Shown one piece after another: positions 3,352 to 27,379 of a DNA stretch of 64,000 nucleotides. The DNA lies in the NCBI GenBank assembly GCA_944323485.1, contig CALUSR010000002.1:68048-132047 (forward strand), given 5' to 3'. The notes under the pieces were generated by a model that was given only the letters and a program-made list of their open reading frames with translations, had not been told where the DNA came from and made no database searches. The stretch comes from Candidatus Gastranaerophilales bacterium (GTDB taxonomy: Bacteria > Cyanobacteriota > Vampirovibrionia > Gastranaerophilales > CAJFVJ01). Within the stretch, counting starts at the first letter, position 1. Each line of letters begins with the position of its first letter. A program made the position numbers and the translations under genes.

Positions 3352-3354
3352 ATT

Positions 3355-4317: not shown

Positions 4318-5307
4318 ATGAACAACAACTTTCCTAAAAAAATACTCATAATAAGACAGGGTGCAATAGGCGATGTAGTTCACACAACCGAAACTTATCG
4401 CAGCATAAAAAGACTTATGCCTGACTCTGAAATACACTATCTCACAACAAAGACACCTGCAGAGCTGCTCTATGGCGACCCTGATTTGACAAAACTTATC
4501 ATATCGCAGGACAGGAGTTATAAAGGATTGTTTAAACTCGCTAAAGAACTGAAGCAAGAACAATACGACCTCATAATCAACCTCCAGCCTTCTATCAGGT
4601 TCAAAATTTTCTCATTTCTTTGCTTTTCAAAACAAACCGTTACTTACAAAAAAAACTTCAAATATCATGCCGTTGAGAACTTTTTTTTAACAGCGAAAAA
4701 AGCGATTAAAAATCTTGAGTTAAAGAAAGAACTCTGTCTTTATATCGATGAAGAAAGCATTTCAAAAACAAAAAAAATGCTTCCTCCCCAACATCCGATT
4801 GTGGTTCTGAATACCCAAAGCGGACCGGTAAGACACGGCAGAAAATGGAAGATGGAATATTTTCGAGAACTGGCAGACTCATTGATAAAAGAGTATAATG
4901 CGCAAATTATTATCATCGGTTCAAAAGAAGATGCAAAAAAACTTGATATCTTCAAAAACTGTAACCCCAATATTCACATCGTCGCAGGCAGATTAAATTT
5001 GAGAGAAACAGCTGCACTTCTGGCACAGTGTGATTTTATGATTTCCGGTGATACCGGACCTCTGCATATAGCAACGGCAACAGGACACCCTGTGTGCATA
5101 GGGTTATTCGGGGCAATGCCAATCAAACGAACAGGGCCCTGGGGAGAAAAGCACTTTGCTATCACATCTAATCTCAAGTGCATCCCTTGCAACAGAAGGA
5201 AATGCAAATTTGAAAAAAGCGAGTTCAATCCCTGCATGAACAATCTGCAGCCCGAAGATGTTATGACGTTCATAAGAGAAAAGAACTTAATAACAAAAAG
5301 CTATTGA
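4318..5307 (+). CDS. glycosyltransferase family 9 (LPS heptosyltransferase-like)
   Basis: 329 aa. The N-terminal KILIIRQGAIGDVVHTT and C-terminal ISGDTGPLHIATATG blocks are GT9 hallmarks. Confidence 0.8.
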   Translation: MNNNFPKKILIIRQGAIGDVVHTTETYRSIKRLMPDSEIHYLTTKTPAELLYGDPDLTKLIISQDRSYKGLFKLAKELKQEQYDLIINLQPSIRFKIFSFLCFSKQTVTYKKNFKYHAVENFFLTAKKAIKNLELKKELCLYIDEESISKTKKMLPPQHPIVVLNTQSGPVRHGRKWKMEYFRELADSLIKEYNAQIIIIGSKEDAKKLDIFKNCNPNIHIVAGRLNLRETAALLAQCDFMISGDTGPLHIATATGHPVCIGLFGAMPIKRTGPWGEKHFAITSNLKCIPCNRRKCKFEKSEFNPCMNNLQPEDVMTFIREKNLITKSY

Positions 5308-5343
5308 TAAAACATCTTGACTATGTATAATTATAATTGACCT

Positions 5344-5417
5344 GCGCCCGTAGCTCAGCTGGATAGAGTGTTTGGCTACGAACCAAAAGGTCGGGGGTTC
5401 GAATCCCTCCGGGCGCG
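5344..5417 (+). tRNA. tRNA-Arg (anticodon ACG)
   Basis: Cloverleaf read by eye. Acceptor stem GCGCCCG/CGGGCGC, D-arm TAGCTCAGCTGGATAGAG, anticodon stem TTTGG/CCAAA with loop CTACGAA, and T-arm GGGGG-TTCGAAT-CCCTC. Very similar to E. coli tRNA-Arg(ACG). CCA is not encoded. Confidence 0.9.
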
Positions 5418-5450
5418 AATTTTTGCTAAAGTTTAGAAAAAAGTTTTCCT

Positions 5451-6290
5451 ATGAATTCAAAAATCTTTTCATATAAAATCTCCGACAACCACAAAGTTTT
5501 TACGCTCTTTGGTATAAAAATCAAAATGAAACTTCCTTATCTGAACAGATTTGAGGTACACATCACCGACCATTGTAACCTCAACTGTAAAGGGTGTTCC
5601 CACTTCTGTCCGGTAGCTGATGAGAAATATGTCGATGTAGAGCAATTCAGAAAAGATTTTCAGTGTCTATCTCAAAAAATTGACGTCGGAACAATCAGAC
5701 TCTTGGGAGGAGAACCACTTTTGCATAAGGATTTACCAGAACTCATGCAAATAGCAAGAGAATCATTTCCCCACTCAGCAATAAATATCTGCACAAACGG
5801 CATTCTTTTGCCGACTATGGACGATGAGTTCTGGAACACAGCAAAAAGATATGACATAAAAATCGATATGTCAAAGTATCCGCCGCTTGCTGATAAATTT
5901 GACTCTTATATAAACCTCATAAAAGAAAAATCAAATCAACTCGGAGATATAAATGATATTGAAGATTTTGCGTATGTTCTTAATAAAAAAGGTGACTCTG
6001 ATTACAAAAGAACTTTCGATAAGTGTAAAAATAAATATAAAGCACACGCAAATCTGAATAACGGTATGTTTTATATATGCGGAAGATGTTATCTTACTTA
6101 TTTCAACAAGTATTTCAATACAAATCTTCCTATAGATAATGGCATAAATATTTATGAACACTCCGGTAAAGAAATCGTCAAATTTTTGAATACACCTCAG
6201 AAACTCTGCAGCTTCTGCTTTGAAGACAGACCGACATTCAAATGGGGAATATCAAAAAAAGAAAAAGCAGAATGGCTGAAAGCAGACTAG
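5451..6290 (+). CDS. radical SAM enzyme (C-terminal Cys-rich, SPASM/twitch-like)
   Basis: 279 aa. Cluster motif is CNLNCKGC (CX3CX2C), with LLGGEPLL as the SAM/GGE block. C-terminal cysteines are ICGRC...LCSFC. The N-terminus carries the IFSYKISDNHKVFTLFGIKIKMK tag. Confidence 0.8.
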   Translation: MNSKIFSYKISDNHKVFTLFGIKIKMKLPYLNRFEVHITDHCNLNCKGCSHFCPVADEKYVDVEQFRKDFQCLSQKIDVGTIRLLGGEPLLHKDLPELMQIARESFPHSAINICTNGILLPTMDDEFWNTAKRYDIKIDMSKYPPLADKFDSYINLIKEKSNQLGDINDIEDFAYVLNKKGDSDYKRTFDKCKNKYKAHANLNNGMFYICGRCYLTYFNKYFNTNLPIDNGINIYEHSGKEIVKFLNTPQKLCSFCFEDRPTFKWGISKKEKAEWLKAD

Positions 6291-7069: not shown

Positions 7070-7144
7070 ATAATCAAAATTTTATCTGTTTTTCTATCTA
7101 AATCTGAAAATATAAAAACAAAACATCAAAAAAATTGACAAATA

Positions 7145-8095
7145 TTACAAAATTTTATTAACCAGACTTAAAGTAGCTTTTCTTTTGGGTATCTCATCCA
7201 ACATCTGCTTAAGATTATCCCATCCGAGTTTTGTTGCAAACTCTTCACTCAGACGGGGAATACCCATTTTCTTATCTGTATAACATATATCGTTAACTGC
7301 CGAAAATATCTTATTTGCAATAGCCGTTGTTTTGTTTTTTGAAGTTCCTGCTTCTAACTTCGGAACGGATAAAGGATGTGGATTGAAAAAATAATTTAAG
7401 GCAAGCGCCGTATCAGTCCTGTGCATACCGGTTGCACATCCGATATAAAAATCACCTTTTTTAAGCGTTTCAACAAACTCAGGTATCAGGTCTATATTTT
7501 CTTGAGTCCATTTCTCATCATAAGCAATCGGAAACTTCATATATTCAAGCCCGCTCTTGGCACAAATTTCTCCGTTTTTAAGAGAATCTCCGTCACTTTT
7601 GAGGTCAATAACTCTCTTGATGCCATAATCCTTCAATTTTGCTATTACTTTGCGGCCTTTTCTCGAAAACGGACTGCTGCCTCTTATGCCTGTTTCATCT
7701 GTCGTTATGGCAAAGTTCTCGATGTTCAATTCTTTTGCAGGTAAAAACTTTGATGATTTTGTATCATCAACTTTAATAACAGACGTCGTCAGCTCCTTTA
7801 TTGTTTCATCATCATAAACACCAGCCTGATTTAAAATCCTGTTTCTCAGAATATCCAGCGCAGGATCAAGCGCTCCCTTTGCAACAAATCTGTGAGTTTG
7901 ATCTGGATTATATTTTTGTATATTAATAGCAGCCTTTGATGCAGCACTAATCGCATCACTTGCCTCTTTTGAAAATTCCGTTATGCCTCTTTGAGCAGCC
8001 TCAGAAGAAGGGATTGCTCTTGTTGCAGAAGATTTTGCACAAGCTTGCGTCATCTCAGGTATTTTCTGCACATCAGAAACTTTTGAATAATCCAT
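7145..8095 (-). CDS. CX5R phosphatase-like protein, paralogue
   Basis: 316 aa. P-loop is FYIGCATGMHRTD. It shares the blocks IRGS..S.GRK.I..LK..GIK.VIDL, GL.Y...PI and ALNYFFNP with 6287..7069. Confidence 0.6.
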   Translation of the reverse strand: MDYSKVSDVQKIPEMTQACAKSSATRAIPSSEAAQRGITEFSKEASDAISAASKAAINIQKYNPDQTHRFVAKGALDPALDILRNRILNQAGVYDDETIKELTTSVIKVDDTKSSKFLPAKELNIENFAITTDETGIRGSSPFSRKGRKVIAKLKDYGIKRVIDLKSDGDSLKNGEICAKSGLEYMKFPIAYDEKWTQENIDLIPEFVETLKKGDFYIGCATGMHRTDTALALNYFFNPHPLSVPKLEAGTSKNKTTAIANKIFSAVNDICYTDKKMGIPRLSEEFATKLGWDNLKQMLDEIPKRKATLSLVNKIL

Positions 8096-8202
8096 AATAA
8101 ACCCCGTACGAAACTATATATTATAATAAAAACAACCAAAGAATAAAAAATGCCAATAAAAACATGTCATTCTTAAGATAAAAATACTTACTTCGCTTGT
8201 GC

Positions 8203-8979
8203 TCAATATGTTTCAGTTCTTTTTTTTGCTTCTTTATATTTTGCCCTGAAATATTCTTTTTTTTCTCCAAAAGATACAAAAAACATCAATTTATAAAATA
8301 AATATTTAAAAAATTCTTTTATTTTTTTAGAATGAAATAATTTTGTGCATAAATCACAGACCTGTTCATCAAAAGACAACTCCTCACTAAGGATAGTATC
8401 ATCTTTAACAAAGACAGACCCGAGTGTATATATAGTTCCGCCATCAAGCCATTTGCCTGTGCGTGCACCTTTATAATATTTTTTTACAACCTCAATAACC
8501 ATATCATTGTATGTGCAAAATGGATAAGCAAACCATTCAAAGCCGCTTTTATCAAGATTTTTCATATAGTCAGGAGCGGCTATCTCCTCCTCGAGTTTTT
8601 TGTAGTCCGATATTTCCTCAAGGTGAGGATGAGATTTCGTGTGATATTGAAGACGTCCGCCTATTTTCATCAAACTTTTCAAATCGTTCTCGTTCAAGAA
8701 AAACTCATCACCCTGCTGGGCTTTATCATAGAAATCTTTGACTAAAAATAATTCAAAAGGGTAGCCAAAGTGTTTGAGAATAGGAGCGGCGTATGTCAAA
8801 ACCGATTTATACCCGTCATCAAAAGTAATCACAACCTGATTTGCATCTGAGGGATTATAGTCTTCAAGATAGACGACAGTCTTATCTTGAAGACTAAGCA
8901 TATGCTTAGTGAATTTTTCAAGACTGATTGAGATTTCATCGTCAACTTCAGGTTTTACGTGGTGATAAAGGAGAATCAT
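8203..8979 (-). CDS. polysaccharide deacetylase (NodB-type)
   Basis: 258 aa with MILLYHHV and VVITFDDGYKS motifs. ATGA overlap with the upstream gene. C-terminal K-rich tail is FVSFGEKKEYFRAKYK. Confidence 0.75.
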   Translation of the reverse strand: MILLYHHVKPEVDDEISISLEKFTKHMLSLQDKTVVYLEDYNPSDANQVVITFDDGYKSVLTYAAPILKHFGYPFELFLVKDFYDKAQQGDEFFLNENDLKSLMKIGGRLQYHTKSHPHLEEISDYKKLEEEIAAPDYMKNLDKSGFEWFAYPFCTYNDMVIEVVKKYYKGARTGKWLDGGTIYTLGSVFVKDDTILSEELSFDEQVCDLCTKLFHSKKIKEFFKYLFYKLMFFVSFGEKKEYFRAKYKEAKKRTETY

Positions 8980-10340
8980 TGATAATACTCATCTTCTAGT
9001 TTCTTTAGTTCCATTTTGTATTTCACATATTTTTCTAAATGAAATTTTTTCTTCCCAAAAGATAACTTCCACATGATTTTGTGAAAATACTTTTTGAACA
9101 TCAGCTCTCTTGGGGAATAAAAGATAAAATCATCCTGCGTATTATTTTGGAAAAGAGAATTCAACACTAAAAACTCTTCTTCAGATAAGTGATTAATCTT
9201 TGAAAACACTAACCTAATATAAGTCAAAAAATCTTCTTTATCAGGTCCAAACACATCGGGCATTTTCATATTATTATCTTTAGCATAGTTAATCAAATTT
9301 TTGTTCACACAGAACAAAAACGGACCTTTGCCAATATGCACGGGATACAATGTTCTATAAGCATCAATATATGTTACATCAAGATTTTTCACATCATCAA
9401 CCAAAAACTGCAGCAGATTTGGAAGACAAATTTTATTTATAAACGTTGCTTTTATCCCATCTTTTGCAAAAAGAAGATTATGTGGCAGCGTAGATACTGC
9501 ACACACGACATGTTCTGCATTCTGCATAAGATGAATTTGTTCAACTGCCGTATACTTTTCCGGAGATATTGAAACAAAACCGTTTTTGTTAAAAAAACTT
9601 TCAATTTTATCTTCGCCTATATCTCTATCGGTAAAAACCCAGTTTTTACGGGAAAGATAGATTTTCTTGTGAGTTTTTATTTTGAGAGGCTTCTCCATCG
9701 CTTTTTGGATAATGTGATTTATCAAAAACTTATACTCTTGTGTATAAAAAATGCCTGCCTCAGAGCAGGTATCAGCAACTATCACTGATTTGAACTTTGT
9801 CGGCTTGCGCAAAAATACGACCTGTTCTCGCTTGAGTCCGATTAACTCAAGAATTTCAAGATAGCTTCCATCTATCTCATAATCATCAACAGGCTGAAGA
9901 AAAACAACCTTTATATCTTTATATTCCTCAGGATTTTTCGCTATCGGATAAAGACGGCAGATGCACTCAAGCAAAAAATGTCCCCACTGCCTTGTACACC
10001 AGCCACCATAAAAGACAGTGTCATCTAAATAGTCACATTCTTCAAATTCATACGTTCCATACATTCTATAACCAGAAGATAAATATCCTGAATTGAACAC
10101 ACCTCCTAGTAAAGCATGAATAGCTGAAGAAGGGATATACTCATTTTTTTTATCAAGAAGTCCCCCACAAAAAGTAAATTTCTTATCTTCATTTAAAAAT
10201 AGTGATGGAAGACAGGTTGCATCATCATATGTTCTTATTTCCAGTTTTCTATCGGAGAAATATTCCTGTTGTTCTGCAAAATCAAGTATTTTCGATGAAC
10301 ACTCATCCCCGAACAGATACTTTCTGTTAATCTTTTTCAT
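8976..10340 (-). CDS. GT61/DUF563-family glycosyltransferase
   Basis: 454 aa. The QWGHFLLECICRLYP block is typical of DUF563. SD AAGGTG lies upstream of the ATG. Tandem paralogue of 10360..11691; both start MKKINRKYLF. Confidence 0.65.
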   Translation of the reverse strand: MKKINRKYLFGDECSSKILDFAEQQEYFSDRKLEIRTYDDATCLPSLFLNEDKKFTFCGGLLDKKNEYIPSSAIHALLGGVFNSGYLSSGYRMYGTYEFEECDYLDDTVFYGGWCTRQWGHFLLECICRLYPIAKNPEEYKDIKVVFLQPVDDYEIDGSYLEILELIGLKREQVVFLRKPTKFKSVIVADTCSEAGIFYTQEYKFLINHIIQKAMEKPLKIKTHKKIYLSRKNWVFTDRDIGEDKIESFFNKNGFVSISPEKYTAVEQIHLMQNAEHVVCAVSTLPHNLLFAKDGIKATFINKICLPNLLQFLVDDVKNLDVTYIDAYRTLYPVHIGKGPFLFCVNKNLINYAKDNNMKMPDVFGPDKEDFLTYIRLVFSKINHLSEEEFLVLNSLFQNNTQDDFIFYSPRELMFKKYFHKIMWKLSFGKKKFHLEKYVKYKMELKKLEDEYYQ

Positions 10341-10359
10341 ATCAACACCTTTGAAAATA

Positions 10360-11691
10360 TTAAAACATCACTTTTTTATATTCTTTTAACCTATTTTTAT
10401 ATTCAATATATCTATTATAAAAATATTTATTTTTACCCTTTATAATCATCGACAAAACTTTATAAAAATATTTTTTAATAAAAAGCTCTCTTTTTGAATA
10501 AAAATGAAATCTGGTTCTCATTATTTTATACAAATTTCGCAATTCATATAAATCTCTATCAGACAAATTATCTATTTTTTCAAAACATAAATCTAAATAT
10601 TTTATGATATCATCTTTCCTTGCTTCTCGTTTAGGGAGTTTCATCCCGTTATCTTTTGCATAGTTTATCAAATTTTCGTTCACATCAAACAAAAAAGGTC
10701 CGATACCGCAATCAGCAGAAAACAATGCTAAATATCCATCAATATATGTTGCATCTATATTTTTAAAATCATCAATTTGAAACTGAGAGGAATTGTATCT
10801 TGGCATTTTATTTATAATCGCAGATTTTATCCCGTCACGAGCAAATAGAAGATTGTGAGGAAGAGTACAAATGGCACTTGCAACATGGTCTGCCCCCTGT
10901 AAAATATGAATTTGTTCCACAAGTGAGTGTTTTTCCATCGATACAGATTTGAAACCGTTTTTGTTAAAAAATCTTTCAATCTTATCTTCACCAATATCCC
11001 TATCATAAGATAATGCCCAATTTTTTCTCGAAAGATATATTTTTTTATGTGTTTTTATTTTGACCGGTTTCCCCATCGCTTTTTCAACAATATGATTGAT
11101 TATAGTTTCATATTCTTTTGTCCAAAAAATATTCGTATTTAATGATGGTTCAGGAACAATAATTTTCTTATACCTCGTTGGTTCTCGAAGAATAACGATT
11201 TGCTCCTCCATTATTCCTATCAAGTTCAACAGTTCAAGAAACGTCCCGTTTATCTCATCATTTTCTCTCATTGGGAGAAAGATTATTTTCATATCTTTAT
11301 ATTTTTCAGGATTTTGAATAATCGGATAAAATCTTGATATACACTCAAGCAAAAAATGCCCCCATTGTTGAACATAAAAACCGCTGAAAAAAACCGTTTC
11401 ATCAGAATATTTTACTTTTTCCGAATCATATTGATAACTTCCATACATTCGATAAATATTAAAATTAATGGTTGCAGTTTCCTCAACATAGTTGTTCTGC
11501 TCATCAACACCACCGCCAATACACATTGGAACAGTACGCCAGGACTTAAATTTCGGAGGAAGAAGAGTTATATTATCAAAAGTTTTTATCGACAGCACTT
11601 GATTACTAAAGAAATTTCGCTCTTCTGCTGTCTTCAAGATTGTTTCAGAATCTTCATTCGCAAAAAGATACTTTCTGTTAATCTTTTTCAT
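10360..11691 (-). CDS. GT61/DUF563-family glycosyltransferase, paralogue
   Basis: 443 aa with the QWGHFLLECISRFYP block. Long collinear similarity to 8976..10340 at both protein and DNA level. SD AGGTG. Confidence 0.65.
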   Translation of the reverse strand: MKKINRKYLFANEDSETILKTAEERNFFSNQVLSIKTFDNITLLPPKFKSWRTVPMCIGGGVDEQNNYVEETATINFNIYRMYGSYQYDSEKVKYSDETVFFSGFYVQQWGHFLLECISRFYPIIQNPEKYKDMKIIFLPMRENDEINGTFLELLNLIGIMEEQIVILREPTRYKKIIVPEPSLNTNIFWTKEYETIINHIVEKAMGKPVKIKTHKKIYLSRKNWALSYDRDIGEDKIERFFNKNGFKSVSMEKHSLVEQIHILQGADHVASAICTLPHNLLFARDGIKSAIINKMPRYNSSQFQIDDFKNIDATYIDGYLALFSADCGIGPFLFDVNENLINYAKDNGMKLPKREARKDDIIKYLDLCFEKIDNLSDRDLYELRNLYKIMRTRFHFYSKRELFIKKYFYKVLSMIIKGKNKYFYNRYIEYKNRLKEYKKVMF

Positions 11692-11762
11692 GAAATAAAC
11701 ACCTATAGAGAAAAAATTTTTTATAATATAATTAAAATTGTAATATAAAAAAGAAAATAATT

Positions 11763-12857
11763 ATGGCAAAAATTTGTAAAAATCCTTTCAAAATTCTGGA
11801 AATTACTCCGGATGGCGAAATTTATCCTTGCTGTCCTGCATATTGCAGAGAATATTCTTTTGGAAATATATATAAAAGCTCTTTTGATGAGGTTTGGAAT
11901 TCGCAAGAAGCACAAAAATTCAGAGAAAAATTACTCAACAACGATTATTCTCTCTGTCAAAGAGATATCTGTTTCCCAAGTTTTTCTGAAACGGATGCTT
12001 CATACAAAACAGTAATGGACTACCCTGAGCATGTTATTTTCTCTCATGATTTGGAATGCAATGCAAGCTGCATAACCTGCAGGGATAATATATGCAGAAA
12101 TTCTTAAGAACAGCTCGAAATACTGAATAAAAGAATTGATACAGTCTATCTTCCTCTTTTGAAAAATGCAAAAATGGTAAAACTCCTCGGTTCAGGAGAC
12201 CCTTTTGCCTCACGTCACTCACAAAAGCTGATAGAAGCCATAACAAAAACTTATCCTCAAATAAGATTTGATATACATACAAACGGCGTTTTATGTTCAA
12301 AAGAAATGTTAGAAAAGTTAAACTTGACCGACAAATTGGAAATAGTCAGTATATCAATGCATGCAGCAACAAGAAAAACTTATGACAAAATAATGAAAAA
12401 CAGCAACTATGATAGAGTTCTTGAAAACATAAAATACTTATCAACATTGAAAAAATCCGGAAAACTTAAAAAGTTAAATTTATATTTTGTCGTATCTTTA
12501 ATCAATTACAAAGAAATGAAAGATTTTGTAAAATTTGCTGAAAAATATGACGCAGATGTAACATTTTGGGAGTATAGAGATTGGGGTACATCTCTCGGGC
12601 TTGACTATGACAATCTTGCTGTTTATAATCCGCTGCATCCGAAATACAACGAGCTTGCAGACATCCTTCAGGATGATATATTCAAAAGCCAGAGATGTCA
12701 TATGAACAACTTGTTTAAATCCATAAAACCTATAAAACGCAATAAACTTGAACTTGCAAAATACTTTTTGAAAAGCAATATCTACAGAAAAAGATACAAA
12801 AATAAAAGAGTTTTGAAATTCTTCGGCTTAAAATTCTCTTATAAGAAAAAATCCTGA
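11763..12857 (+). pseudogene. radical SAM enzyme with N-terminal SPASM-like Cys-rich domain, interrupted by one in-frame TAA (12105-12107)
   Basis: Track ORFs 11763..12107 and 12159..12857 are in the same frame, separated only by a TAA. Read through, the sequence is ...ECNASCITCRDNICRNS*EQLEILNKRIDTVYLPLLKNAKMVKLLGSGDPFA... This gives CX3CX2C followed at the normal distance by the GGE-like GSGDPF block. Confidence 0.7.
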
Positions 12858-12898: not shown

Positions 12899-14023
12899 TC
12901 ACATCTCTTTTTTCCTAAATTTAAGTTTAAGCCCAACAAATCTCAATACTTTATGATTTCCATCATTCTTTACTGAGAATAATGACTGTATACAACTTTT
13001 CATAACAAATTTTCCCCCATACTCTTTGTTGCTCTCTTTCAACTTTGTGCTCAAGAATGCTTTCATCCTCGGAGTCAGCCACTCACTGCCGTCTTTTTCC
13101 ACTCTGTTTCTCATCTCGGCATAAAAAGGCGCCTTATGCTCAGGGATTGCTCCAAAAGTCAAAAAAGCATGCGCATTGTAACAATGCGACTCGGGGCATT
13201 TATGCCCTACAGGTCGAAAATGTATCGGAGAGTCGATATCCTCAAAAACATTCTGCAAAACTTCACCGCAATAACACTGTCTCAAATCCCCTGTTGCAAG
13301 ATCAAGCGTGCATGTCCAATCACCTGCGTAGCAAAACTCCCTGCGTTTTTGATTGAATACCGAGAGTTTATACTCAAACATCTTTGAATCAAACTGCGAC
13401 CAGATTTTTTTGTATTCTTCCCTTGAATAATTCGTCAAAATAGGCAGCTCATATTTTGTGTTATCTCTTGCAACGGTGACATGGCAGAGCGCACCAACCT
13501 GCTCAAGGCAAATTTTCTTCATCTCTTCTATTTCGGGGATGACCTCATCACTCGGTGTAAGCTCTAAAGAGAAGGAACATCCAGCCTCACGAACTTTTCT
13601 GATGTTATCAAAAAATTTTTCCATCATCTTGAGCCTTTTCAACTCAAGATACTGAAATGAAAATTTGAATAAAAGCCTCTCAAGCAGCTCTTTTGGCAGC
13701 TGAACAATCTCATCAAAACGTTTTGATACAGTACCGTTTGTGACAACCATAACATAATGCCCCTCTTCGAGAAAACATCTTATTATATCAGTCATCTCCG
13801 GGGGAAGGAGAGTTTCCCCGTTCCCGCATAAGTTCAAACAGCAAATACCCCCTAGCCTTTCCTTACTCAATGCCTTTGCCATATGCTCAGGCGTATATTT
13901 AAACACAGGTAACGCATCAGAAAATTTTCGCTGCTGCGTAATATAGCAGTAATGGCATCTCAAATTGCATGTTGTAACAGGAACATTGCAGTCTATAAAA
14001 CGTTTTATTTTCTCTTCTTGCAT
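12899..14023 (-). CDS. radical SAM enzyme with C-terminal Cys-rich (SPASM-like) region
   Basis: CNLRCHYC motif, plus CGNGETLL, then the C-terminal CYAGDWTC...CYC...CPESHC. I prefer the ATG at 14023 (GGTG SD, 2 nt after the upstream TGA) over the TTG at 14035. Ends with the LFSVKNDGNHKVLRFVGLKLKFRKK tag. Confidence 0.8.
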   Translation of the reverse strand: MQEEKIKRFIDCNVPVTTCNLRCHYCYITQQRKFSDALPVFKYTPEHMAKALSKERLGGICCLNLCGNGETLLPPEMTDIIRCFLEEGHYVMVVTNGTVSKRFDEIVQLPKELLERLLFKFSFQYLELKRLKMMEKFFDNIRKVREAGCSFSLELTPSDEVIPEIEEMKKICLEQVGALCHVTVARDNTKYELPILTNYSREEYKKIWSQFDSKMFEYKLSVFNQKRREFCYAGDWTCTLDLATGDLRQCYCGEVLQNVFEDIDSPIHFRPVGHKCPESHCYNAHAFLTFGAIPEHKAPFYAEMRNRVEKDGSEWLTPRMKAFLSTKLKESNKEYGGKFVMKSCIQSLFSVKNDGNHKVLRFVGLKLKFRKKEM

Positions 14024-14025
14024 AA

Positions 14026-16302
14026 TCAGCACCAAATTGTATTGTATAGTTTGCCGGTATCTTTTGTTGATGAGAGATATTCTTTCAAAAATTCTTCATA
14101 TGATAACATATCACAATATCTGACATCTGATGATGTAATACTATCACAAACAGAATTCAACTCTGATTTTATCTCATCAGGGGAGTTTAAAATTTTTACA
14201 TTCTCAAAAAACTTGAGCGATTGCTCAAAAATCCCTGATACTTTCCCATAGCTGTTATCAAATAGAAAAACCTTTTTCCCGAGAAGCGTAGCAACAAGCC
14301 CTACATGCAAGCGGTCAGTCACAACAACTTCGACTGAGTCTATTGCCTGCATAAAAAGCTTTGATAATATACGCACAACGCCTGAATCGGTACATGAGCT
14401 GCAAGCAAACAAAGATAAGTCTATCGCAGGGACATAAAGTTCCGATATTGATTTTTCCTCATCGCCCCTCATGAAATAGCCGACTTTCTTACCCTTTTGT
14501 TCAACAGTTTTCAACTTGAGCTCGTCAACAACCCGCCTGAAAAGAGATTTATATATTTGATACAATTCTTTGTATAAAAACATAAGATTTTCATCAGATA
14601 TATCTTCAAGATTTTTCTTGAGAAGATTTTTATCAAAACTGTTTTGTCTATATCTGCTCAAATCCAAACTGAATGCCATATCATCAGTAAGGAAGAATTT
14701 TGCTCTTGAGTTTTTCGAGATGCAGTAGTCAAAGCTGCGTTTTTCTCTGCAAAAAACAATAAATCTCTCATCAAGAACATCAAGCAGGTCATCACATTCA
14801 TAGAAGCTTGAGGGTAAGATTACGGCTTTTCTCAAATTTTGTTTCTCAAAAATTTCTTTCACCTGTTGATAATTCCAGTATTTAACAAACAGCCCGCCGC
14901 CCCCATAGACAAGGTCAAACGGCTTGTCATCGATATCATTTGGAGAATTGTAAGCATCATATATACGATAAGAGAATTTATTATCCTCAAGCATCTGATA
15001 CTCTGATTCTGCAATAACAACATCCCCGAGGTTTCCGTTGTTCGGATAGAAAAAGAAATCATCAAGTTCTTTGAGAGAATTCAAAATGCGCTCATCGAGA
15101 GGTCTTTTTATGTCTTTCAAGAATGTTGTTTCTTTCTCAAAAGATTTGTATATGCTTTTCTTTGAGGCAAAAATGTTATCCAAAAGAAGAGAGATAAAGT
15201 CTTTTTTTTGCTCTTCAAGAGTTTTTTTCAGCAATGATTTACGTCTTTTGAAAGACAACTTTATGCCAAGAAGGCGGACAATCTTTTTATCTTCCGTTTT
15301 TGCTACAGAGAAAATATTGAGAAAAGGTTTCTTTTCATTAAAATAGTCAAGTTCAAGATAATCCTTCAACTTCCAATATTTTCGTTTTCGAACAATATTA
15401 ACAACTTCATTATTATTCCAATAATCACCGAGAGAAATTTTATGCACCAAATCTGCAGCATAATTTAAAACAAGTCTTTTATCATTATCAGAAGCATCTC
15501 TATAATTATCATTCAGAGCAAGACGAAACATCTTTGTCAGCACAACTTCATTTTTGACCAACAAACCATTTTTTTCAAAAAAATCATATACCAGCTCAAA
15601 ATTTTTCAGCGTATCAAACAGATGATTGGGCGTTTTCCCAGAAACTGAATGCATAATAGAATTTTTTCTTTTCCTGTAGAAATACAAATATTCATTCAAA
15701 AAATATGTTTTTGGGGCAAGTGCCATATATTTTGTGTAGAAAGAAAAATCTTCATGTATAATCCCTTCAGGAAAGTCTATTTTATATTTCTCAATAATTG
15801 ACCTTCTCCAGAGTTTATTCCAGACAGTAAAGGTATGTTTGAAGAAACTATCCCCATCAAGAGTTGTTTTTCCTGAAAATTTTACCCGATGCCAGTTTTT
15901 CTCTCCATCAAAATCACACTCAACACCTTCTTCACAAACAAGAGCAGCATACCAGCAGACGGAATCAACACCTTCAGAAAAATGCCTGATTGCTTTTTCA
16001 TAAGTTTCTAAATCTATCCAATCATCACTGTCAACAAATGAAACAAACTCACCCGTCGCATTTTTCACCCCTGTATTTCTCGCAGCAGATAACCCGCCGT
16101 TTTGTCTTGTGATGATTTTTATTCGAGAATCTTTTTTGGCATACTCTTCTAATATCATTGGAGAACTATCAGTTGAGCCGTCGTCAACACAGATTATTTC
16201 AAGATTTTGATATGTCTGATTGATTATACTATCGAGGCATTTTGATAGATATTTTTCCACATTGTATACCGGAACTATTACAGATATCATCGAATTATTC
16301 AC
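14026..16302 (-). CDS. bifunctional GT2 glycosyltransferase / polysaccharide pyruvyl transferase
   Basis: 758 aa. N-terminal GT2 blocks: ISVIVPVYNVEKYL..CLDSIINQTY.NLEIICVDDGSTD and SFVDSDD. C-terminal PS_pyruv_trans-like blocks: NNGNLGDVVI, YGGGGLF and VVTDRLHVGLVATLLGKKVFLFDNSYGK. GTG start overlaps the upstream TGA, with a GAGGG SD. Confidence 0.8.
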   Translation of the reverse strand: MNNSMISVIVPVYNVEKYLSKCLDSIINQTYQNLEIICVDDGSTDSSPMILEEYAKKDSRIKIITRQNGGLSAARNTGVKNATGEFVSFVDSDDWIDLETYEKAIRHFSEGVDSVCWYAALVCEEGVECDFDGEKNWHRVKFSGKTTLDGDSFFKHTFTVWNKLWRRSIIEKYKIDFPEGIIHEDFSFYTKYMALAPKTYFLNEYLYFYRKRKNSIMHSVSGKTPNHLFDTLKNFELVYDFFEKNGLLVKNEVVLTKMFRLALNDNYRDASDNDKRLVLNYAADLVHKISLGDYWNNNEVVNIVRKRKYWKLKDYLELDYFNEKKPFLNIFSVAKTEDKKIVRLLGIKLSFKRRKSLLKKTLEEQKKDFISLLLDNIFASKKSIYKSFEKETTFLKDIKRPLDERILNSLKELDDFFFYPNNGNLGDVVIAESEYQMLEDNKFSYRIYDAYNSPNDIDDKPFDLVYGGGGLFVKYWNYQQVKEIFEKQNLRKAVILPSSFYECDDLLDVLDERFIVFCREKRSFDYCISKNSRAKFFLTDDMAFSLDLSRYRQNSFDKNLLKKNLEDISDENLMFLYKELYQIYKSLFRRVVDELKLKTVEQKGKKVGYFMRGDEEKSISELYVPAIDLSLFACSSCTDSGVVRILSKLFMQAIDSVEVVVTDRLHVGLVATLLGKKVFLFDNSYGKVSGIFEQSLKFFENVKILNSPDEIKSELNSVCDSITSSDVRYCDMLSYEEFLKEYLSSTKDTGKLYNTIWC

Positions 16303-18323
16303 TTAAGCAGCCCTCGCAAATTTTCTAAAGATTTTTTGTATATATCAGATGCAAGCTCTTTCAGCTTTGTTTGTTTCTTTTCATATTCTTCTTTTGACAT
16401 ATTGATGGCATCAGCCATAGCTTGAGGTAAATCAGAATTTTGCTCATATACAATACTGTTTTCAGAATCAAATCCATGTACTCCTGCGAATTTTTTGTTT
16501 ATTAAACATGGCTTTGCAAACCCGTAAATAAGCTGAAAAGAACCTGATGTCCCGTCTTTGATGTATCTGTCATGGTCAGGATTTTCAGGATCCAAAAGAG
16601 GGAGGAAGAAATCTGCATTGTTCACCTCTGAATACAGTGTCGGATAATCAACTCTGCCCTTTATTTCAAAAAGCGGACGGATTTTTTCCGGAATATCATC
16701 CATCTCTCCTCGTCCTATAACAACAATTCGAAAATTTGCATTGCTATTATCTACAAGAAAAGTTAGTGCATCAAAAAGAATTTTCACATTTCGTCTTTCA
16801 GGTTCAAGAGCTCCTGCCAGAATAAAAACAGGAATATCGTTCTTTGGTGTTATTTTGAAATCTCCGAAATAATGAGGATTTGCAAAAACATAGTCAACAT
16901 CTTCAACATCGAGTTTATAATCAGGCAAAATAACACATTTCTTGCCTCCGTACGCCTCTTGATTTTTTCGCATAATATCAATATGATGCTCCGTGAGAAT
17001 AATCTTTGAGTTTTTTATATGATGAGGTTTTATTACATCAAGCACATTATGCCAATTTGCACCATAGATAACAGTCGATGTAAAAAACACATAGTCATAT
17101 TTGTTGATAAGCCTATTTTGCAAAATATGAACAATAGTATCAAAATTGCAGGAAAATATGCCTGATATATTCAAATTGTTTGCAGACTCAGCCAAAGGAA
17201 ACTCTGAAGCTTCGTTGCTCAACATCAAAAAATCAACACCGTATCCTAAATCATTTACATATTTCACAAACCCCGGGAATACCTCGCCATGAGAATCATT
17301 CAGTTCAACAAAAAGTATTGTCTGCGGTTCTATTTTCCTTTTGAAAAAAGCTTTGCAAAACTGCTCATCCGTTTTCTTAATCTTTCTTGCAAATTTAATC
17401 CCAAACGCCGTTATTGTTTGTCTTTTAGCAAAATTTGTATATTCTGTAGTAACCGAAAACAACCTGTCAGATATGGATATTTGATACAAGCGTTTTAATA
17501 AAATATCAACGGAAGCCATATAAGCTTTATCTTCTTCAAATTCTTCGGGGATTAATGACTTTTTCACAAAATTTCTGACGGAACTTCTTTGTTGTTGACC
17601 GAATTTGTTTTCCTCGCAAAAGTCAACTATTTTCTTTATCATCTCAAGCGAATTATTTTTCAGAACGGACTCATCTCTTTGCGTATCGGTGGTCGAACCG
17701 CTGTGTTTTATATAATAATAACAGCCGCTGTTTATAAAAATGACCTTATCTGAAAAGAACAGTGCTTTTATCAAAAATAAATTATCTTCATAAAATATTC
17801 CTTCCGGAAAACGAATATTATATTTTTCGAGGAAAGAACGTCTGAACAGCTTGTTACAGCACATACCGTTCAATACTCTTGGCAATTTTTTCTCAAACAG
17901 GCTCTCCAACGAACAGTCCAAATCATATCGAACCATAGTTGACCCCTTCTCAATTATATTATAAGAAGTGATTGAGATATCAGCATTATTTTCACAGGCC
18001 GCCTCATAAAGACTCTTCAAAAAATCCGAAGAAATATAATCATCACTGTCAACAAAAGAAATAAACTCTCCCATTGCAAGAGAAAGAGCTCTATTTCTGG
18101 CAACTGATTGACCTGCGTTTTTTTGAGATAAAACTTTTATTCTGGAATCCCTTGAAGCATACTCATTCAGTATCCTTAAACTACCGTCCGAAGACCCATC
18201 ATCAACACATATAATTTCAAAATCCTGAAAAGATTGCGCAAAAAGCGAAGAAAAACATTTTTTCAAATATTTTTCAGTATTATATACAGGAATAATAACA
18301 CTTATCTTCGGAGCCTCACCCAT
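16299..18323 (-). CDS. two-domain glycosyltransferase (GT2 + GT4/GT1-like C-terminal domain)
   Basis: N-terminal PKISVIIPVYNTEKYL...EIICVDDGSSD and SFVDSDD. The C-terminal half (VFILAGALEPERRNVKILFDAL...IVVIGRG) looks like a GT-B Rossmann half. The ATG at 18323 forms a TGATG overlap with the upstream gene and has an AAGGAAAGGA SD. Alternative ATG at 18350. Confidence 0.75.
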   Translation of the reverse strand: MGEAPKISVIIPVYNTEKYLKKCFSSLFAQSFQDFEIICVDDGSSDGSLRILNEYASRDSRIKVLSQKNAGQSVARNRALSLAMGEFISFVDSDDYISSDFLKSLYEAACENNADISITSYNIIEKGSTMVRYDLDCSLESLFEKKLPRVLNGMCCNKLFRRSFLEKYNIRFPEGIFYEDNLFLIKALFFSDKVIFINSGCYYYIKHSGSTTDTQRDESVLKNNSLEMIKKIVDFCEENKFGQQQRSSVRNFVKKSLIPEEFEEDKAYMASVDILLKRLYQISISDRLFSVTTEYTNFAKRQTITAFGIKFARKIKKTDEQFCKAFFKRKIEPQTILFVELNDSHGEVFPGFVKYVNDLGYGVDFLMLSNEASEFPLAESANNLNISGIFSCNFDTIVHILQNRLINKYDYVFFTSTVIYGANWHNVLDVIKPHHIKNSKIILTEHHIDIMRKNQEAYGGKKCVILPDYKLDVEDVDYVFANPHYFGDFKITPKNDIPVFILAGALEPERRNVKILFDALTFLVDNSNANFRIVVIGRGEMDDIPEKIRPLFEIKGRVDYPTLYSEVNNADFFLPLLDPENPDHDRYIKDGTSGSFQLIYGFAKPCLINKKFAGVHGFDSENSIVYEQNSDLPQAMADAINMSKEEYEKKQTKLKELASDIYKKSLENLRGLLK

Positions 18324-19195
18324 CACCGATTCCTTTCCTTGCGTTTCCATATTTTATTTTTTTTCCCAAAGAGAATTAATATTTTATATCCGTCTTCATT
18401 CTTCAAAGAAAAAATCCATTTTACCAAATTGTATCTGTCAAGATACAAAAACAAAAACAAATTATCTTTCATTAACAACTTATTTGAAGCAGAAACAAGA
18501 ATATCTCTGTGTTCAAGCCCATATTTCGTCCTTTTTATATAACTCTGTTCATGAATCCGCCAGTATGTAGTAGTTTCATCCGTATATGAAAAATTGTAAT
18601 GAAAAGCAAATTGCCGCCAGAGCCAAAAATCAAGCCATGGTTTGATAGGAGTATCAAAATTCAACGACTCAAAAATTGATTTTTTTATCATAACAGCAGA
18701 AAAAGTAGGCAGAATATTCTCAAGAGAAAAATACCCGAATAAATTTTTATCTGTCTCTTTTGAAAAAACGGAATGATATCTTTCAACAGCCTTATCCCTT
18801 ATAGGACTTCCGATTGTTTTTATTTTGTTGCATAAAATAGAAACATCTTCATTTTTACGGATATAGTCTGCTTTTACCTCCAGATAATTCTCTTCCCAAT
18901 AATCATCACTTTCAAGAAACGCTACATATTCTCCTTTGCATTTTGATAATCCTAAATGCATAGATTCAACAAGCCCTCTGTTCTCATTATTTGGATGGGT
19001 ATAGAAATAAAAATTCGAATACTTCGAAGTGTACTCTTTGATTATATCAACAGACCCATCAGAAGAACCATCATCAACTATAATAACTTCAAAATTCTTG
19101 TATGTTTGATTTGCCAGCGATGTGAGCGTTTCATGCAAAAATTTTTCATAGTTAAAACTTGTAACTAAAACACTCACAAAAGGTGATGACGACAT
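18323..19195 (-). CDS. GT2 glycosyltransferase
   Basis: 290 aa with FVSVLVTSFNYEKFL...VIIVDDGSSDGS and FLESDD. C-terminus carries IFSLKNEDGYKILILFGKKNKIWKRK. Confidence 0.8.
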   Translation of the reverse strand: MSSSPFVSVLVTSFNYEKFLHETLTSLANQTYKNFEVIIVDDGSSDGSVDIIKEYTSKYSNFYFYTHPNNENRGLVESMHLGLSKCKGEYVAFLESDDYWEENYLEVKADYIRKNEDVSILCNKIKTIGSPIRDKAVERYHSVFSKETDKNLFGYFSLENILPTFSAVMIKKSIFESLNFDTPIKPWLDFWLWRQFAFHYNFSYTDETTTYWRIHEQSYIKRTKYGLEHRDILVSASNKLLMKDNLFLFLYLDRYNLVKWIFSLKNEDGYKILILFGKKNKIWKRKERNR

Positions 19196-21703: not shown

Positions 21704-22252
21704 CTAAACTAACGAATAATCAAGAATCACCGAATCAAGCTCAAACTGAGTTGAAGCAGAGTTAATCGCAGCCTCATACTGTTTATATGTCTTATCAAGA
21801 GTGTTCAACTTGTTGAATATCTCAAGATAAAACGCTCCTACCTGCTCGGGTGTCATCTCGGGAGAAGATGTTTCCTGACCGTCTGTATATGTTCTGAAAG
21901 ACCCTGCAGGGAGATTTGCCTTTGTAATGCTTACAAGATTCAGAAAACCCGTTGCCATTACATCAACCCTGCCAATCGGAGTGTTCACTTTCACAACTCC
22001 GAAGGATGTTGTCAAAGACTCTTTGTTCTCAAGAGCCTGTTTGTTTTCGAGAAGTTTTTTAATTCTTTCTTCTTCGAGTTTTTTTGATTTATATTCATCG
22101 GTGTTTGAAATATCAGTCAGCACACCTTCAACAACCTTAAAGCTGTCTTGATTTTCGTTGAAATACTCATAGTCTATATCAACATAACTTGACCCTGAAA
22201 AAGCCCAATCAGCCCAATTTGTCAGAATATTATTTTCTATTTTTATATACAT
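21704..22252 (-). CDS. DUF4376-like protein (tail-fibre-associated domain)
   Basis: The C-terminal half (GSFRTYTDGQETSSPEMTPEQVGAFYLEIFNKLNTLDKTYKQYEAAINSASTQFELDSV) resembles the DUF4376 pattern. The ATG at 22252 lies 2 nt after the upstream TAA, with SD GGAGAAGGAG. Track start is 22276. Confidence 0.45.
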   Translation of the reverse strand: MYIKIENNILTNWADWAFSGSSYVDIDYEYFNENQDSFKVVEGVLTDISNTDEYKSKKLEEERIKKLLENKQALENKESLTTSFGVVKVNTPIGRVDVMATGFLNLVSITKANLPAGSFRTYTDGQETSSPEMTPEQVGAFYLEIFNKLNTLDKTYKQYEAAINSASTQFELDSVILDYSLV

Positions 22253-22254
22253 AT

Positions 22255-23538
22255 TTACACTCCTTCTCCTATGCAAGGATAAAATCTCAATGCTTGGCTC
22301 AAAATAGAAGCATTACCGCTTCTTGAACCTTTATAGACACTACCTTTTTTTATGGGATGAAATGCCGATGATGACGTTGTTCCTGCCCCCATAGTAGTTG
22401 TAAGAACGTTAAATGTTTTACCGTCAATATTTAAATCAAAGTATAACGCTGTAGAAGTAAAAGAACATTGTACTTGTGCAAACAACCATCCGTTACACTC
22501 AGCTGTATAATTTGTATTCCAAGTCTTATTTACACCCCTTGTTAAATCAGGCAAAAAAGAAACAGCAGAAACATCATATCCGTTCATATTGTAGATAAAA
22601 GTTTTCACTTTTGTTATCACACCAGATGATACGGTAAAAGCCCCTATCGGAACTTTTGAATATTCAGAAATACCGTCACTTGTAATCTGATAAGCATTTG
22701 TCGGTTCTTTTGATGTATCAAACCAGACAAAACCTTCTTTTTCACTCCACTTTGTAACTTCATAATCCAGAGGCAAACATCCGAACACCCATCCGTTTGT
22801 TGCTCCGAAGTTTGTAACTCCAGTTATTCTGAATGCTTTAAATTCCAAATTCGGATAATCACTTGTATAAACAATGTCTGTATTTGTTCCTGATATTGTT
22901 TCATTTATATTTACAACCGTCGTCCAGACGTCATATTGGTCAAGAACTTCTATATAGCCTGTCTTGATTCTTTTCGTGTCCAAAGAAGAAGATATCACCC
23001 ATTTTTTTGCTTTCATAAAAAACGGCATCTCTAACTTTGAATAAGAATTTGCCTTAGAAAATGTTGCATTTGTAACAAACGCACTATAATAAGCAGAACC
23101 TGAGGCAATGTTTGTTCCGCTGCTGATAAAGCTGTTTTGAGAATTTGATTTAAGAAGAGGTATGGAAAACGGACTTTCAGAACCTTTATCAAACAAAGAT
23201 TTTTCAACGGTTTCAACACTACCATCTGCTCCTGCAAACACAATATATTCACCATCGTCCATTGAAGATACGGATAAGTCACTCAAAGAAGACAATGCAA
23301 AACTCTTTCTCTGGGCATTTGTCAAAATCAAATCAGGATAGATTCCTCCAACTTTGAATTTTAATGTTGAATCCTCAAAAGATAACAAATCAGGCTCTCC
23401 ATGAGATAAATTTCCGCTGTTTATGCAAAAATTTTTTGTTGTTTTATACTTCAGATGCATCAAACACTCATTCAACGTATCAGGGTTGCATGGAGTTCCA
23501 AGAGCCGTCGGATTGTCTGACCATAAATAATTCGTCAT
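22255..23538 (-). CDS. hypothetical beta-rich protein, tail-fibre/receptor-binding-like
   Basis: 427-aa ORF rich in S/T/N/G, with no TM or signal peptide. Translationally coupled to the DUF4376-like gene. The function is inferred only from that pairing and from composition. Confidence 0.45.
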   Translation of the reverse strand: MTNYLWSDNPTALGTPCNPDTLNECLMHLKYKTTKNFCINSGNLSHGEPDLLSFEDSTLKFKVGGIYPDLILTNAQRKSFALSSLSDLSVSSMDDGEYIVFAGADGSVETVEKSLFDKGSESPFSIPLLKSNSQNSFISSGTNIASGSAYYSAFVTNATFSKANSYSKLEMPFFMKAKKWVISSSLDTKRIKTGYIEVLDQYDVWTTVVNINETISGTNTDIVYTSDYPNLEFKAFRITGVTNFGATNGWVFGCLPLDYEVTKWSEKEGFVWFDTSKEPTNAYQITSDGISEYSKVPIGAFTVSSGVITKVKTFIYNMNGYDVSAVSFLPDLTRGVNKTWNTNYTAECNGWLFAQVQCSFTSTALYFDLNIDGKTFNVLTTTMGAGTTSSSAFHPIKKGSVYKGSRSGNASILSQALRFYPCIGEGV

Positions 23539-25494: not shown

Positions 25495-27300
25495 TTACGC
25501 ATTAAATTTAAACTTTCTAACCCAATCAACACCGTATCTTGCTACATACAAGAATAAAAGTTCTCTGAACCTCAAATACATCCACAACGGTTTGTCATAG
25601 GCCTTATTACATTCAAGAGTACATTTTGCTATCACATCATGCAGTTCTTTTTTGCTCATACCAACACTATCAAAGTCATAGAACGGTGCAAATTCCTGCT
25701 GTTGTTCTTTTATTGATATAATCCCGTACTTTTGAGGATCCTCTCTCAATTTTGTATGTTTGCCCATCGTAAAAACACTTCGTCCATAAGAGTGTATAAC
25801 ATCAACATTATCGCATATTATTTTGATGGTTTTTTCTGCATCTTCTACTGTTTCTGCAGGGAAACCGAAGAAAATAAAAGCAAAATTCCATATCCCTGCA
25901 TCTGTTGAATCTTTCAAAATCTCAAAACGTTTATCGATATCAATACCTTTGTTGATTAACTCCATAACTTTATTTGAACCGGACTCAAAACCCCAGAGAA
26001 TCATTGACAATCCGCTTTTGTAAGCTTTTTCAAGAATTTCTTTGCTGAATGCTCTCTCCAGTCTTGCATTGCAAAAATATTTGACATCAACACCGTTTTT
26101 CAAAAGCTCATCAGCTAATCCCTCCATATAAGAAGGCCCTACTGACTCATCAATAAACTCAAAATGCCTTATTCCGTATTTTTCTTTTATTTCAGAGAGT
26201 TCAGAAACAAACTTTTCAGTATGTTTTACATTGAAGTTCTGACCGAAATCCTGATCGCAAAAACTGCACTTTCTCCAGTAACACCCTCTGCTCGACTGAA
26301 CAGGCATAACTATATCAGCACAAAAATATTTGCTCAAATCATAACCATCAAGAGATATGTTACTCATATCATCAAGTTTCATGGGAATATCTTTTTTCGT
26401 AATAACAGGAGCACCATCTCTGTAGAAGACAAGATTTGGAACATTATCAAACGGAATTTCTCCTGATATAGCTCGCGCCAATTCTACAACAGGTCTTTCT
26501 CCTTCTTCCACCAGAACCGAATCAGCAAAGAGTTCAAAAAATTCTTTTTCTTTTGCAAGGTTGTCTATAACTCTACCGAAGAAATTCCCTCCGATATTCA
26601 CATGCGCTTTTGTTTTTTTCTTCAAAAGATGTGACAGCGTAAGACCTCCGACAATCTGTGTTGATGAGTTTATAGAAATTCCTATATAGTCAACATCTTC
26701 TTCAAGCAAATTATCAACTATCTCATCATAATATTCAATGAAGATGTTTGTATCCTTATCAAAACAGTAATATTTGATATTATCATAAGTCAACTTAAAC
26801 AAAGGATTAGCATAGTTATCAAATGTTATGGAGGTAGGCGTATAAGGCAAAGATGCAATATCAAGACCTGCATCAATAATATTCAACGCTCTGATTAATA
26901 AATCCGGATTATAAAAATCTTTCTCATCCTTAAGAATTGATACTGCTTCATGTATTAAATCAGGAATGTTCTCAAGTTCATACTTTTTCTTTGTTAAATA
27001 TTCTTTTATTTTTGTATACTTCAACATCTTATTCTGAATGTTGAAGGGATAATCCGCAAATTGTTTGGTCGGAGAATGATATTTCGAAATATCCTTCAAT
27101 AACCCCTGAAACATCTTTGATGACTTGTCTATAGATTTAATCAAAAAAGACTTGTTCAAAATTTTATTGTAAAAATCTATATTTAAATCAAATACTTTTG
27201 TTGAAAAACCATTATGCTCAAGCTGACCTTTCAATGAAGGAATGGCAAAATGAGGGCTGAGCGGAGTCCACTGAGGGGGAAATAATAACAAAACTTTCAT
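25495..27300 (-). CDS. B12-binding-domain radical SAM enzyme (class B-like)
   Basis: The N-terminus KVLLLFPPQW...PSLKGQLEHNGF..KVFDLN is cobalamin-domain-like. The cluster motif is SSRGCYWRKCSFC (26257-26283, confirmed at the DNA level). ATG at 27300 has an AGAGGT SD 7 nt upstream; the track start is a TTG at 27306. Confidence 0.8.
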   Translation of the reverse strand: MKVLLLFPPQWTPLSPHFAIPSLKGQLEHNGFSTKVFDLNIDFYNKILNKSFLIKSIDKSSKMFQGLLKDISKYHSPTKQFADYPFNIQNKMLKYTKIKEYLTKKKYELENIPDLIHEAVSILKDEKDFYNPDLLIRALNIIDAGLDIASLPYTPTSITFDNYANPLFKLTYDNIKYYCFDKDTNIFIEYYDEIVDNLLEEDVDYIGISINSSTQIVGGLTLSHLLKKKTKAHVNIGGNFFGRVIDNLAKEKEFFELFADSVLVEEGERPVVELARAISGEIPFDNVPNLVFYRDGAPVITKKDIPMKLDDMSNISLDGYDLSKYFCADIVMPVQSSRGCYWRKCSFCDQDFGQNFNVKHTEKFVSELSEIKEKYGIRHFEFIDESVGPSYMEGLADELLKNGVDVKYFCNARLERAFSKEILEKAYKSGLSMILWGFESGSNKVMELINKGIDIDKRFEILKDSTDAGIWNFAFIFFGFPAETVEDAEKTIKIICDNVDVIHSYGRSVFTMGKHTKLREDPQKYGIISIKEQQQEFAPFYDFDSVGMSKKELHDVIAKCTLECNKAYDKPLWMYLRFRELLFLYVARYGVDWVRKFKFNA

Positions 27301-27379
27301 AAACAAGACCTCTAAGCTGTCTATGTAATTTTAATACCCGTAAGAAATTTATATAACCTATAAAAGAAGGATTTATTAC

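Follow-up and report, generated by a model that had tools for sequence, protein, structure and literature searches.

Within a 64,000-nt stretch of contig CALUSR010000002.1 from a Candidatus Gastranaerophilales bacterium (contig positions 68,048 to 132,047; hereafter the window, whose numbering we use throughout), positions 11763..12857 on the plus strand carry a disrupted allele of a gene for a 364-residue radical S-adenosylmethionine (SAM) enzyme. We consider it probable, at about 85%, that this is a natural and recent nonsense null allele of a single gene situated in a surface-glycan locus, whose product would place its auxiliary iron-sulfur (Fe-S) domain, of the twitch/SPASM-like type, ahead of the radical SAM core (a "twitch-first" order).

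When 11763..12857 is translated in a single frame, it yields 364 codons with a terminal TGA and only one internal stop, the TAA at 12105-12107 (codon 115). This agrees with the preliminary description of the window, made from the letters alone, according to which the two listed open reading frames (ORFs), 11763..12107 (114 residues) and 12159..12857 (TTG start, 232 residues), share one frame and are parted by that TAA only. The radical SAM cluster motif CNASCITC (Cys99, Cys103 and Cys106 in the arrangement C99-x3-C103-x2-C106; 12057..12080, plus strand) is intact in the window and precedes the stop, while the GSGDPF block begins beyond it at Gly143 (nt 12189; 12189-12206). Both motifs are located where the preliminary description had put them, although the spacings it gave, 6 codons from the Cys motif to the stop and 24 from the stop to GSGDPF, were too short; by our count, Cys106 is followed by 8 residues (RDNICRNS) before the stop, and a further 27 codons precede GSGDPF. 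With TAA at codon 115, the cluster loop is cut off from GSGDPF and the remainder of the barrel, and these elements do not form one uninterrupted polypeptide in the window, as they do in the allele of other strains that encodes the protein P0001. Codons 116-132 (12108..12158, plus strand) belong to neither ORF. The C-terminal remnant (12159..12857, plus strand), which gene callers begin at ATG 12174 (227 residues), holds GSGDPF and the rest of the core and matches PF04055.

Evidence that the two ORFs derive from one gene comes from homologues and from alleles in which the stop is lacking. Searching a large protein collection, we recovered approximately 100 one-piece homologues of 306-482 residues that cover both halves, nearly all of them annotated with PF13186 plus PF04055. 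The top match, P0001, is 364 residues long, has Gln at position 115 and is identical to the window translation at every other residue. Ten loci encoding P0001 (L001-L010) share 99.1-99.8% identity with the window across 13 kb and keep its gene order. All ten have C at 12105, from which we conclude that the lesion is a CAA (Gln) to TAA change brought about by a C-to-T transition (C12105T). Eight of the ten differ from the window gene solely at 12105 and at a synonymous site, 12320, while the other two (L007 and L008) carry six further substitutions within the gene that leave the protein unchanged. Over the 72 nt that precede the gene, all ten match the window, and the divergent intergenic region at 11692..11762 is the same in the window as in these strains. 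In an alignment of 24 homologues, Cys99, Cys103 and Cys106 occupy invariant columns, and Cys5, Cys23 and Cys65 are invariant or nearly so. More distantly, a profile scan of species-representative genomes with a 7-sequence alignment returned relatives that were 24-43% identical, mostly from Gastranaerophilales metagenome-assembled genomes (MAGs); the species of the window itself was not represented among them. Judged by these comparisons, the two ORFs are one gene and not a chance alignment, in keeping with the earlier proposal that they are halves of a single radical SAM gene. Four explanations for the interruption had been offered, and the one that these data support is a recent nonsense pseudogene.

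The predicted consequence of the stop is severe. In this strain the transition at 12105 has turned Gln115 into a terminator, and translation should cease 8 residues past the CX3CX2C loop, giving a 114-residue fragment with the twitch domain, strand 1 and the cluster loop and without the SAM-binding barrel. Restart at TTG 12159 (codon 133) or ATG 12174 (codon 138) would omit codons 116-132 or 116-137, respectively. In an AlphaFold model of the intact allele (pLDDT 90.3, pTM 0.88), residues 115-129 are predicted to form the first barrel helix, which starts at the position of the stop codon and lies mostly in the stretch outside both ORFs. Because the N-terminal fragment would lack the barrel and a restarted product would lack its first helix, the enzyme is most likely dead, and we infer that its activity has most likely been lost in the window strain. 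A Foldseek comparison with PDB structures matched generic radical SAM cores (SuiB, NifB, viperin, DesII, MoaA and SkfB), with CteB also among the fold matches; since the Foldseek alignment is sequential, it cannot show docking of the N-terminal domain.

Several observations weigh against this interpretation. The gene is nearly undecayed past the stop, with one synonymous change and with promoter and flanks unchanged, and such near-absence of decay implies either that the lesion is recent or that the fragments might keep some use. The genes of the window generally have weak Shine-Dalgarno sequences or none, which offers no guide to restart. The loss of function is itself deduced from sequence. 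Furthermore, the contexts of distant homologues are not uniformly glycan-related; they are mixed, comprising a nine-gene radical SAM array, a gene standing alone and one paired with a further radical SAM gene, and the function of the family is therefore not fixed by context. Scans for promoter-like matches upstream of the gene gave results at the level of shuffled sequence, and a terminator scan was likewise uninformative.

The stop is not peculiar to the window. At least 16 further loci in independent assemblies have T at 12105 (L037-L046 and L081-L086), and the first ten of them represent at least four projects (ERZ162680xx, ONAT22-1, BRZ and SRR29999965); seven of those ten match the window exactly over 1,210 nt. 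The exact 114-residue N-terminal product of the window is on record from 23 contigs and the 227-residue C-terminal product (P0102, from ATG 12174) from 28, some of these contigs being from NCBI. The T allele is found on at least three upstream haplotypes, each of which is carried by intact alleles too.

The same population holds further null alleles of this gene. We tallied alleles in the 90%-identity cluster of P0001, for the 15 of its 43 members that were listed, in contigs that are not independent samples. Intact alleles (G12070, G12079 and C12105, as in L001-L010) account for approximately 57 contigs when all intact 364-residue variants are counted, and the nonsense allele of the window and L037-L046 (Gln115 to stop) for 23. 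Two other null alleles hit the CX3CX2C motif: a frameshift caused by deletion of G12070 in the Cys103 codon, with products of 103 and 266 residues (L047-L052; 36-39 contigs), and a missense change, G12079C, that replaces Cys106 with Ser and occurs on two gene haplotypes (L053-L060 and L080; 18 contigs). To knock out the radical SAM cluster, it is standard practice to substitute Ser or Ala for Cys in this motif (PMC9012708). A double allele combines Cys106Ser with the stop at codon 115 (L081-L086; 9 contigs read, and 6 in the cluster listing). Finally, a 90%-identical sister class is frameshifted at a tetranucleotide repeat, with (AAAG)5 in 28 contigs (L061-L068) and (AAAG)9 in 3 (L073-L075), both out of frame. 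Among the cluster members listed, null alleles amount to approximately 114 contigs against approximately 57 for intact ones, and the split members of this cluster are null alleles broken at other sites. When we scanned JGI metagenomes for the stop-codon region, one contig was found, bearing the Cys106Ser allele with CAA. One locus with the TAA allele, L040, has an extra 8-nt insertion close to the 3' end of the gene, after window position 12804, and a different allele of the downstream radical SAM gene (382 residues), an observation that fits further decay or recombination after inactivation.

Read from these alignments, the window allele is one of at least four independent inactivations of the gene in the same species, and it is the existence of these other null alleles that is new here. 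Such repeated inactivation is what would be expected of an accessory, dispensable and repeatedly lost glycan-tailoring function. The loss may be either neutral or under pressure from phage or host on the surface glycan, any selective reason being our own deduction.

The second of these possibilities can be taken further, to a model in which the gene is an on/off contingency determinant of glycan tailoring, with null alleles at Fe-S ligand codons favoured by the pressure that phage or host would exert on the surface glycan and a reversible (AAAG)n switch in the sister class. Repeat-controlled genes for lipooligosaccharide or capsule are known from Campylobacter, Haemophilus and Neisseria, and the window gene resembles such phase-variable glycan genes in having both intact and null alleles within one species and a sister class with a variable intragenic tetranucleotide repeat. 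The lesions at 12070, 12079 and 12105 fall inside 36 bp (P ~0.003 if three sites are placed at random along 1,095 bp, a post hoc calculation), and G12070 and G12079 each occupy the second position of a codon for an Fe-S ligand, within a CTGCA context in both cases. Moreover, all four combinations of the single-nucleotide polymorphisms at 12079 and 12105 exist although the sites are only 26 bp apart, a violation of the four-gamete test that calls either for recurrent mutation or for recombination with a breakpoint between the two sites. The AAAG tract (approximately nt 3687-3706 of L061-L068, n=5, and nt 1126-1161 of L073-L075, n=9, corresponding to approximately 12452-12470 of the window) has 5 copies in eight loci and 9 in three, null alleles outnumber intact ones by roughly two to one among the cluster members listed, and the gene content of the whole locus differs between strains.

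Other features of the same data speak against selected on/off variation. The window allele is an irreversible point mutation and lacks the tract, carrying GAAAAAATCCGGAAAAC at the corresponding position; no simple-sequence repeat beyond (AT)4 is present in the window gene. The sister class would be in frame only at 4, 7 or 10 AAAG copies, with 4 copies giving exactly 364 residues, and neither an exact look-up of six predicted proteins nor a pattern scan of JGI metagenomes turned up any of these in-frame lengths. Because no in-frame variant was recovered, phase variation is suggested and not demonstrated. In addition, contig counts are not independent samples, and neutral decay together with recombination accounts for the same data. 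Since the glycan locus varies in gene content between strains, its general flux suffices as an explanation: two GT61 copies are present in the window and one in some strains (L005, L006 and L009 were compared), and other strains have truncated GT61 genes (407 residues; 413 plus 29 residues) and GT2 genes of varied length (647-758 and 661-683 residues). We therefore hold the contingency model to be an unlikely one, at roughly one chance in five by our reckoning of the evidence, and worth stating since, if true, it would give the first indication, for this uncultured phylum, of a radical SAM enzyme modifying glycans in a phase-variable manner.

Considerably less probable is a working two-piece enzyme, in which the 114-residue N-terminal fragment and a C-terminal fragment restarted at TTG 12159 or ATG 12174 would assemble non-covalently. 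Both ORFs are open and nearly free of mutations, and both products are reported by gene callers. However, the first barrel helix (codons 116-132 or 116-137) would be in neither piece, and the restart region is identical in the intact alleles, which indicates no adaptation to restart. The circulation of Cys106Ser and of a frameshift in the cluster motif argues that the activity is dispensable in this population. Finally, more distant homologues are never split among those listed; each spans both halves in one piece, which makes a two-piece enzyme unlikely and excludes the idea, considered for the window at the outset, of a conserved two-gene arrangement.

We give still less weight to a programmed or leaky TAA that would be read through to yield some full-length enzyme. 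Low-level readthrough happens at any stop codon, and nothing more specific favours it here. Of the 49 long ORFs in the window, 17 end in TGA, 16 in TAG and 16 in TAA, three of the TAA codons being in a TAAG context; TAA is thus an ordinary terminator under the standard code, and we rejected an alternative genetic code on the same count. The sole tRNA within the window is a tRNA-Arg, no suppressor tRNA being present there, and the surroundings of the stop are identical to those of the CAA allele, so that the low-level readthrough put forward in the preliminary description finds no support. The remaining option from that source, a sequencing or assembly error with a true CAA and an intact gene, draws on the single-base difference between the window and an intact allele and is the least credible of all, being contradicted by the recurrence of T in many independent assemblies from several projects, by its presence on more than one flanking haplotype and in company with Cys106Ser, and by the location of C12105T outside any homopolymer.

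Independent of the lesion, the domain order of the encoded protein is unusual. SPASM and twitch domains have been described as C-terminal extensions of radical SAM enzymes (PMC9012708), whereas in this protein the domain lies at residues 5-70 (Cys5, Cys23, Cys24, Cys65 and Cys70; 11775..11972, plus strand), before the core. PF13186 matches residues 5-66 with 60.6 bits (cut-off 21.5; E 1.8e-16) and ends at profile position 64 of 67, and TIGR04085 matches the same N-terminal segment with 30.9 bits (cut-off 27). PF04055 (cut-off 29.5) gives 45.7 bits for the C-terminal ORF, where it matches at profile positions 51-166 only (E 1.1e-11), and 44.8 bits for the joined protein. The N-terminal Cys set consists of Cys5, Cys23/24 and C65-x4-C70 only. 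Because the CX2CX5CX3C block of a full seven-Cys SPASM domain with two auxiliary clusters is not present in this domain, we expect it to be of the twitch type with one cluster.

A profile of the 24 homologues, searched against all PDB sequences, identified BtrN (4M7S/4M7T), the twitch prototype (PMC9012708), as its best match (E 6.6e-17), and did so in swapped order, with profile positions 96-214 aligned to the core (BtrN 5-123) and positions 4-103 to the twitch domain (BtrN 164-262). This alignment, together with the C-terminal placement of SPASM and twitch domains in the review, supports the view of the preliminary description that the Cys-rich segment is a permuted SPASM/twitch domain. When 1.84 billion cluster representatives were searched exhaustively with a profile, 2,212 matched at E<=1e-30, and the best 150 of these showed a single collinear match (profile approximately 4-332) or a unit repeated inside larger proteins. 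The twitch-first order extends to the whole family, and on this evidence it is the rule in a large group of proteins and no peculiarity of the window gene. Nor is the order new here, as it has already been curated in NCBIfam under NF033640 (N_Twi_rSAM); a literature search found no papers on an N-terminal SPASM/twitch architecture. The match to NF033640 is collinear (residues 3-62 to positions 3-62, and residues 2-207 of the C-terminal ORF to positions 171-376 of 398), and 23 of the 24 homologues match it, with a best E-value of 5.3e-23. The joined protein shares the domain order of N_Twi_rSAM, but its score of 68.3-68.8 bits is below the curated cut-off of 170, and it is for that reason not a member; N_Twi_rSAM is a sister family.

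Comparison with BtrN, the founding twitch enzyme and the 2-deoxy-scyllo-inosamine dehydrogenase of butirosin biosynthesis, also offers a view of the chemistry. Both the core and the one-cluster twitch domain align, with the first two auxiliary-cluster Cys residues of BtrN corresponding to Cys5 and Cys23 of the family and the first Cys of its CxxC to Cys70. Candidates for the fourth ligand in the family are Cys24, Cys65 and a conserved C-terminal residue, Cys315 of P0001 (KSQRCHM). The two differ in that the family order is twitch then core, that identity is low, and that the window gene lies in a glycan locus and BtrN in an aminoglycoside cluster. BtrN itself is small, and its substrate resembles a sugar (PMC9012708). 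By analogy, the most likely chemistry of the intact enzyme would be a BtrN-like radical oxidation or epimerisation of a sugar. In BtrN-type chemistry, the hydroxyl of a sugar or cyclitol undergoes a two-electron oxidation and the auxiliary cluster accepts the electrons; likeness in sequence and fold suggests that this family may do the same. Canonical enzymes with a C-terminal SPASM domain (anSME, PqqE, AlbA, SuiB and MftC) share with the window protein the first two thirds of the SPASM region, which match its N-terminal segment; the window family differs in having the domain at the N-terminus, without the CX2CX5CX3C block and without a peptide-substrate context.

The gene lies in what its Pfam matches identify as a surface-glycan locus, with GT2, GT61, GT9, polysaccharide pyruvyl transferase, polysaccharide deacetylase and two more radical SAM genes. 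A GT9 heptosyltransferase-like gene (4318..5307) is followed by tRNA-Arg(ACG) at 5343-5418 on the plus strand, which sits inside the locus, and then by a radical SAM gene at 5451..6290 (PF04055); the called genes of L007 and L008 lack the radical SAM gene that follows the tRNA. Two adjacent paralogous GT61 genes (454 and 443 residues) occupy 8976..11691 on the minus strand, and a convergent radical SAM gene (PF04055) occupies 12899..14035. The locus also includes two DSP-phosphatase-like genes, a polysaccharide deacetylase gene, a GT2-pyruvyl transferase fusion and further GT2 genes. The radical SAM genes at 5451 and 12899 had been described as having Cys-rich regions in the usual C-terminal place; their C-terminal parts are indeed Cys-rich by eye, but they match PF04055 only, with no SPASM match at E<=0.001. 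The fourth radical SAM gene in the window, at 25495..27306 on the minus strand, encodes a 603-residue protein of the B12-binding type (PF04055 62 bits, weak PF02310). Adjoining the glycan locus are ORFs at 21704..23538 on the minus strand (190 and 427 residues) that by eye resemble phage tail-fibre or receptor-binding proteins. As to the organism, an uncultured melainabacterium of the gut, the MnmG protein of the window is 97% identical to that of a 'Candidatus Adamsella' MAG at NCBI, a genus in the Cyanobacteriota/Melainabacteria group.

Proteins of the glycan locus share a short basic motif, approximately K(V/I)-h-x-h-h-G-(I/L)-K-h-x-(F/M)-(K/R) followed by Lys or Arg, with the sequences KVFTLFGIKIKMK, RVLKFFGLKFSYKKKS, KVLRFVGLKLKFRKK and KIVRLLGIKLSFKRRK (5505-5531 and 12819-12845 on the plus strand, 12940-12914 and 15273-15247 on the minus strand). 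In the disrupted gene it is the C-terminal tail motif FFGLKFSYK (12819..12845). A regex scan of the window gave these 4 matches against 0.05 expected by residue shuffling. One copy lies at an N-terminus, two at C-termini and one in an interdomain linker; the distant homologues P0004 and P0010 terminate in the motif as well, and looser copies occur in the ORFs 16299..18350 and 18323..19195. It is possibly a shared membrane or assembly tag.

The nine-gene array among the distant homologues is found in another gut MAG (L069 and L070, nt 1834-10985), where nine radical SAM genes of approximately 330 residues each lie in tandem, an unusual set of paralogues flanked by the flagellar gene flhA (FHIPEP) and by the chemotaxis genes cheW/MCP/cheA. 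An N-terminal SPASM match is present in three of the nine, the homologue P0013 being one of them.

Taken by itself the disrupted gene is a real and essentially ordinary observation, a segregating null allele of an accessory gene that introduces no new principle. For annotation, it means that the two ORFs belong in a single entry, marked as a pseudogene allele of a twitch-first radical SAM enzyme, and should not be recorded as two genes. The points of interest are the reversed-order family related to BtrN and the repeated, clustered inactivation within a gut melainabacterial population. With respect to enzymology, the 2,212 representatives constitute a large uncharacterised family whose domain order contradicts the usual C-terminal description, and because this family is related to BtrN, an intact allele such as that encoding P0001 is a reasonable target in the search for new anaerobic sugar chemistry. 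With respect to the organism, the several independent null alleles and the variable tetranucleotide tract suggest that the surface glycans of gut Melainabacteria are under diversifying pressure, as are those of cultivated pathogens.

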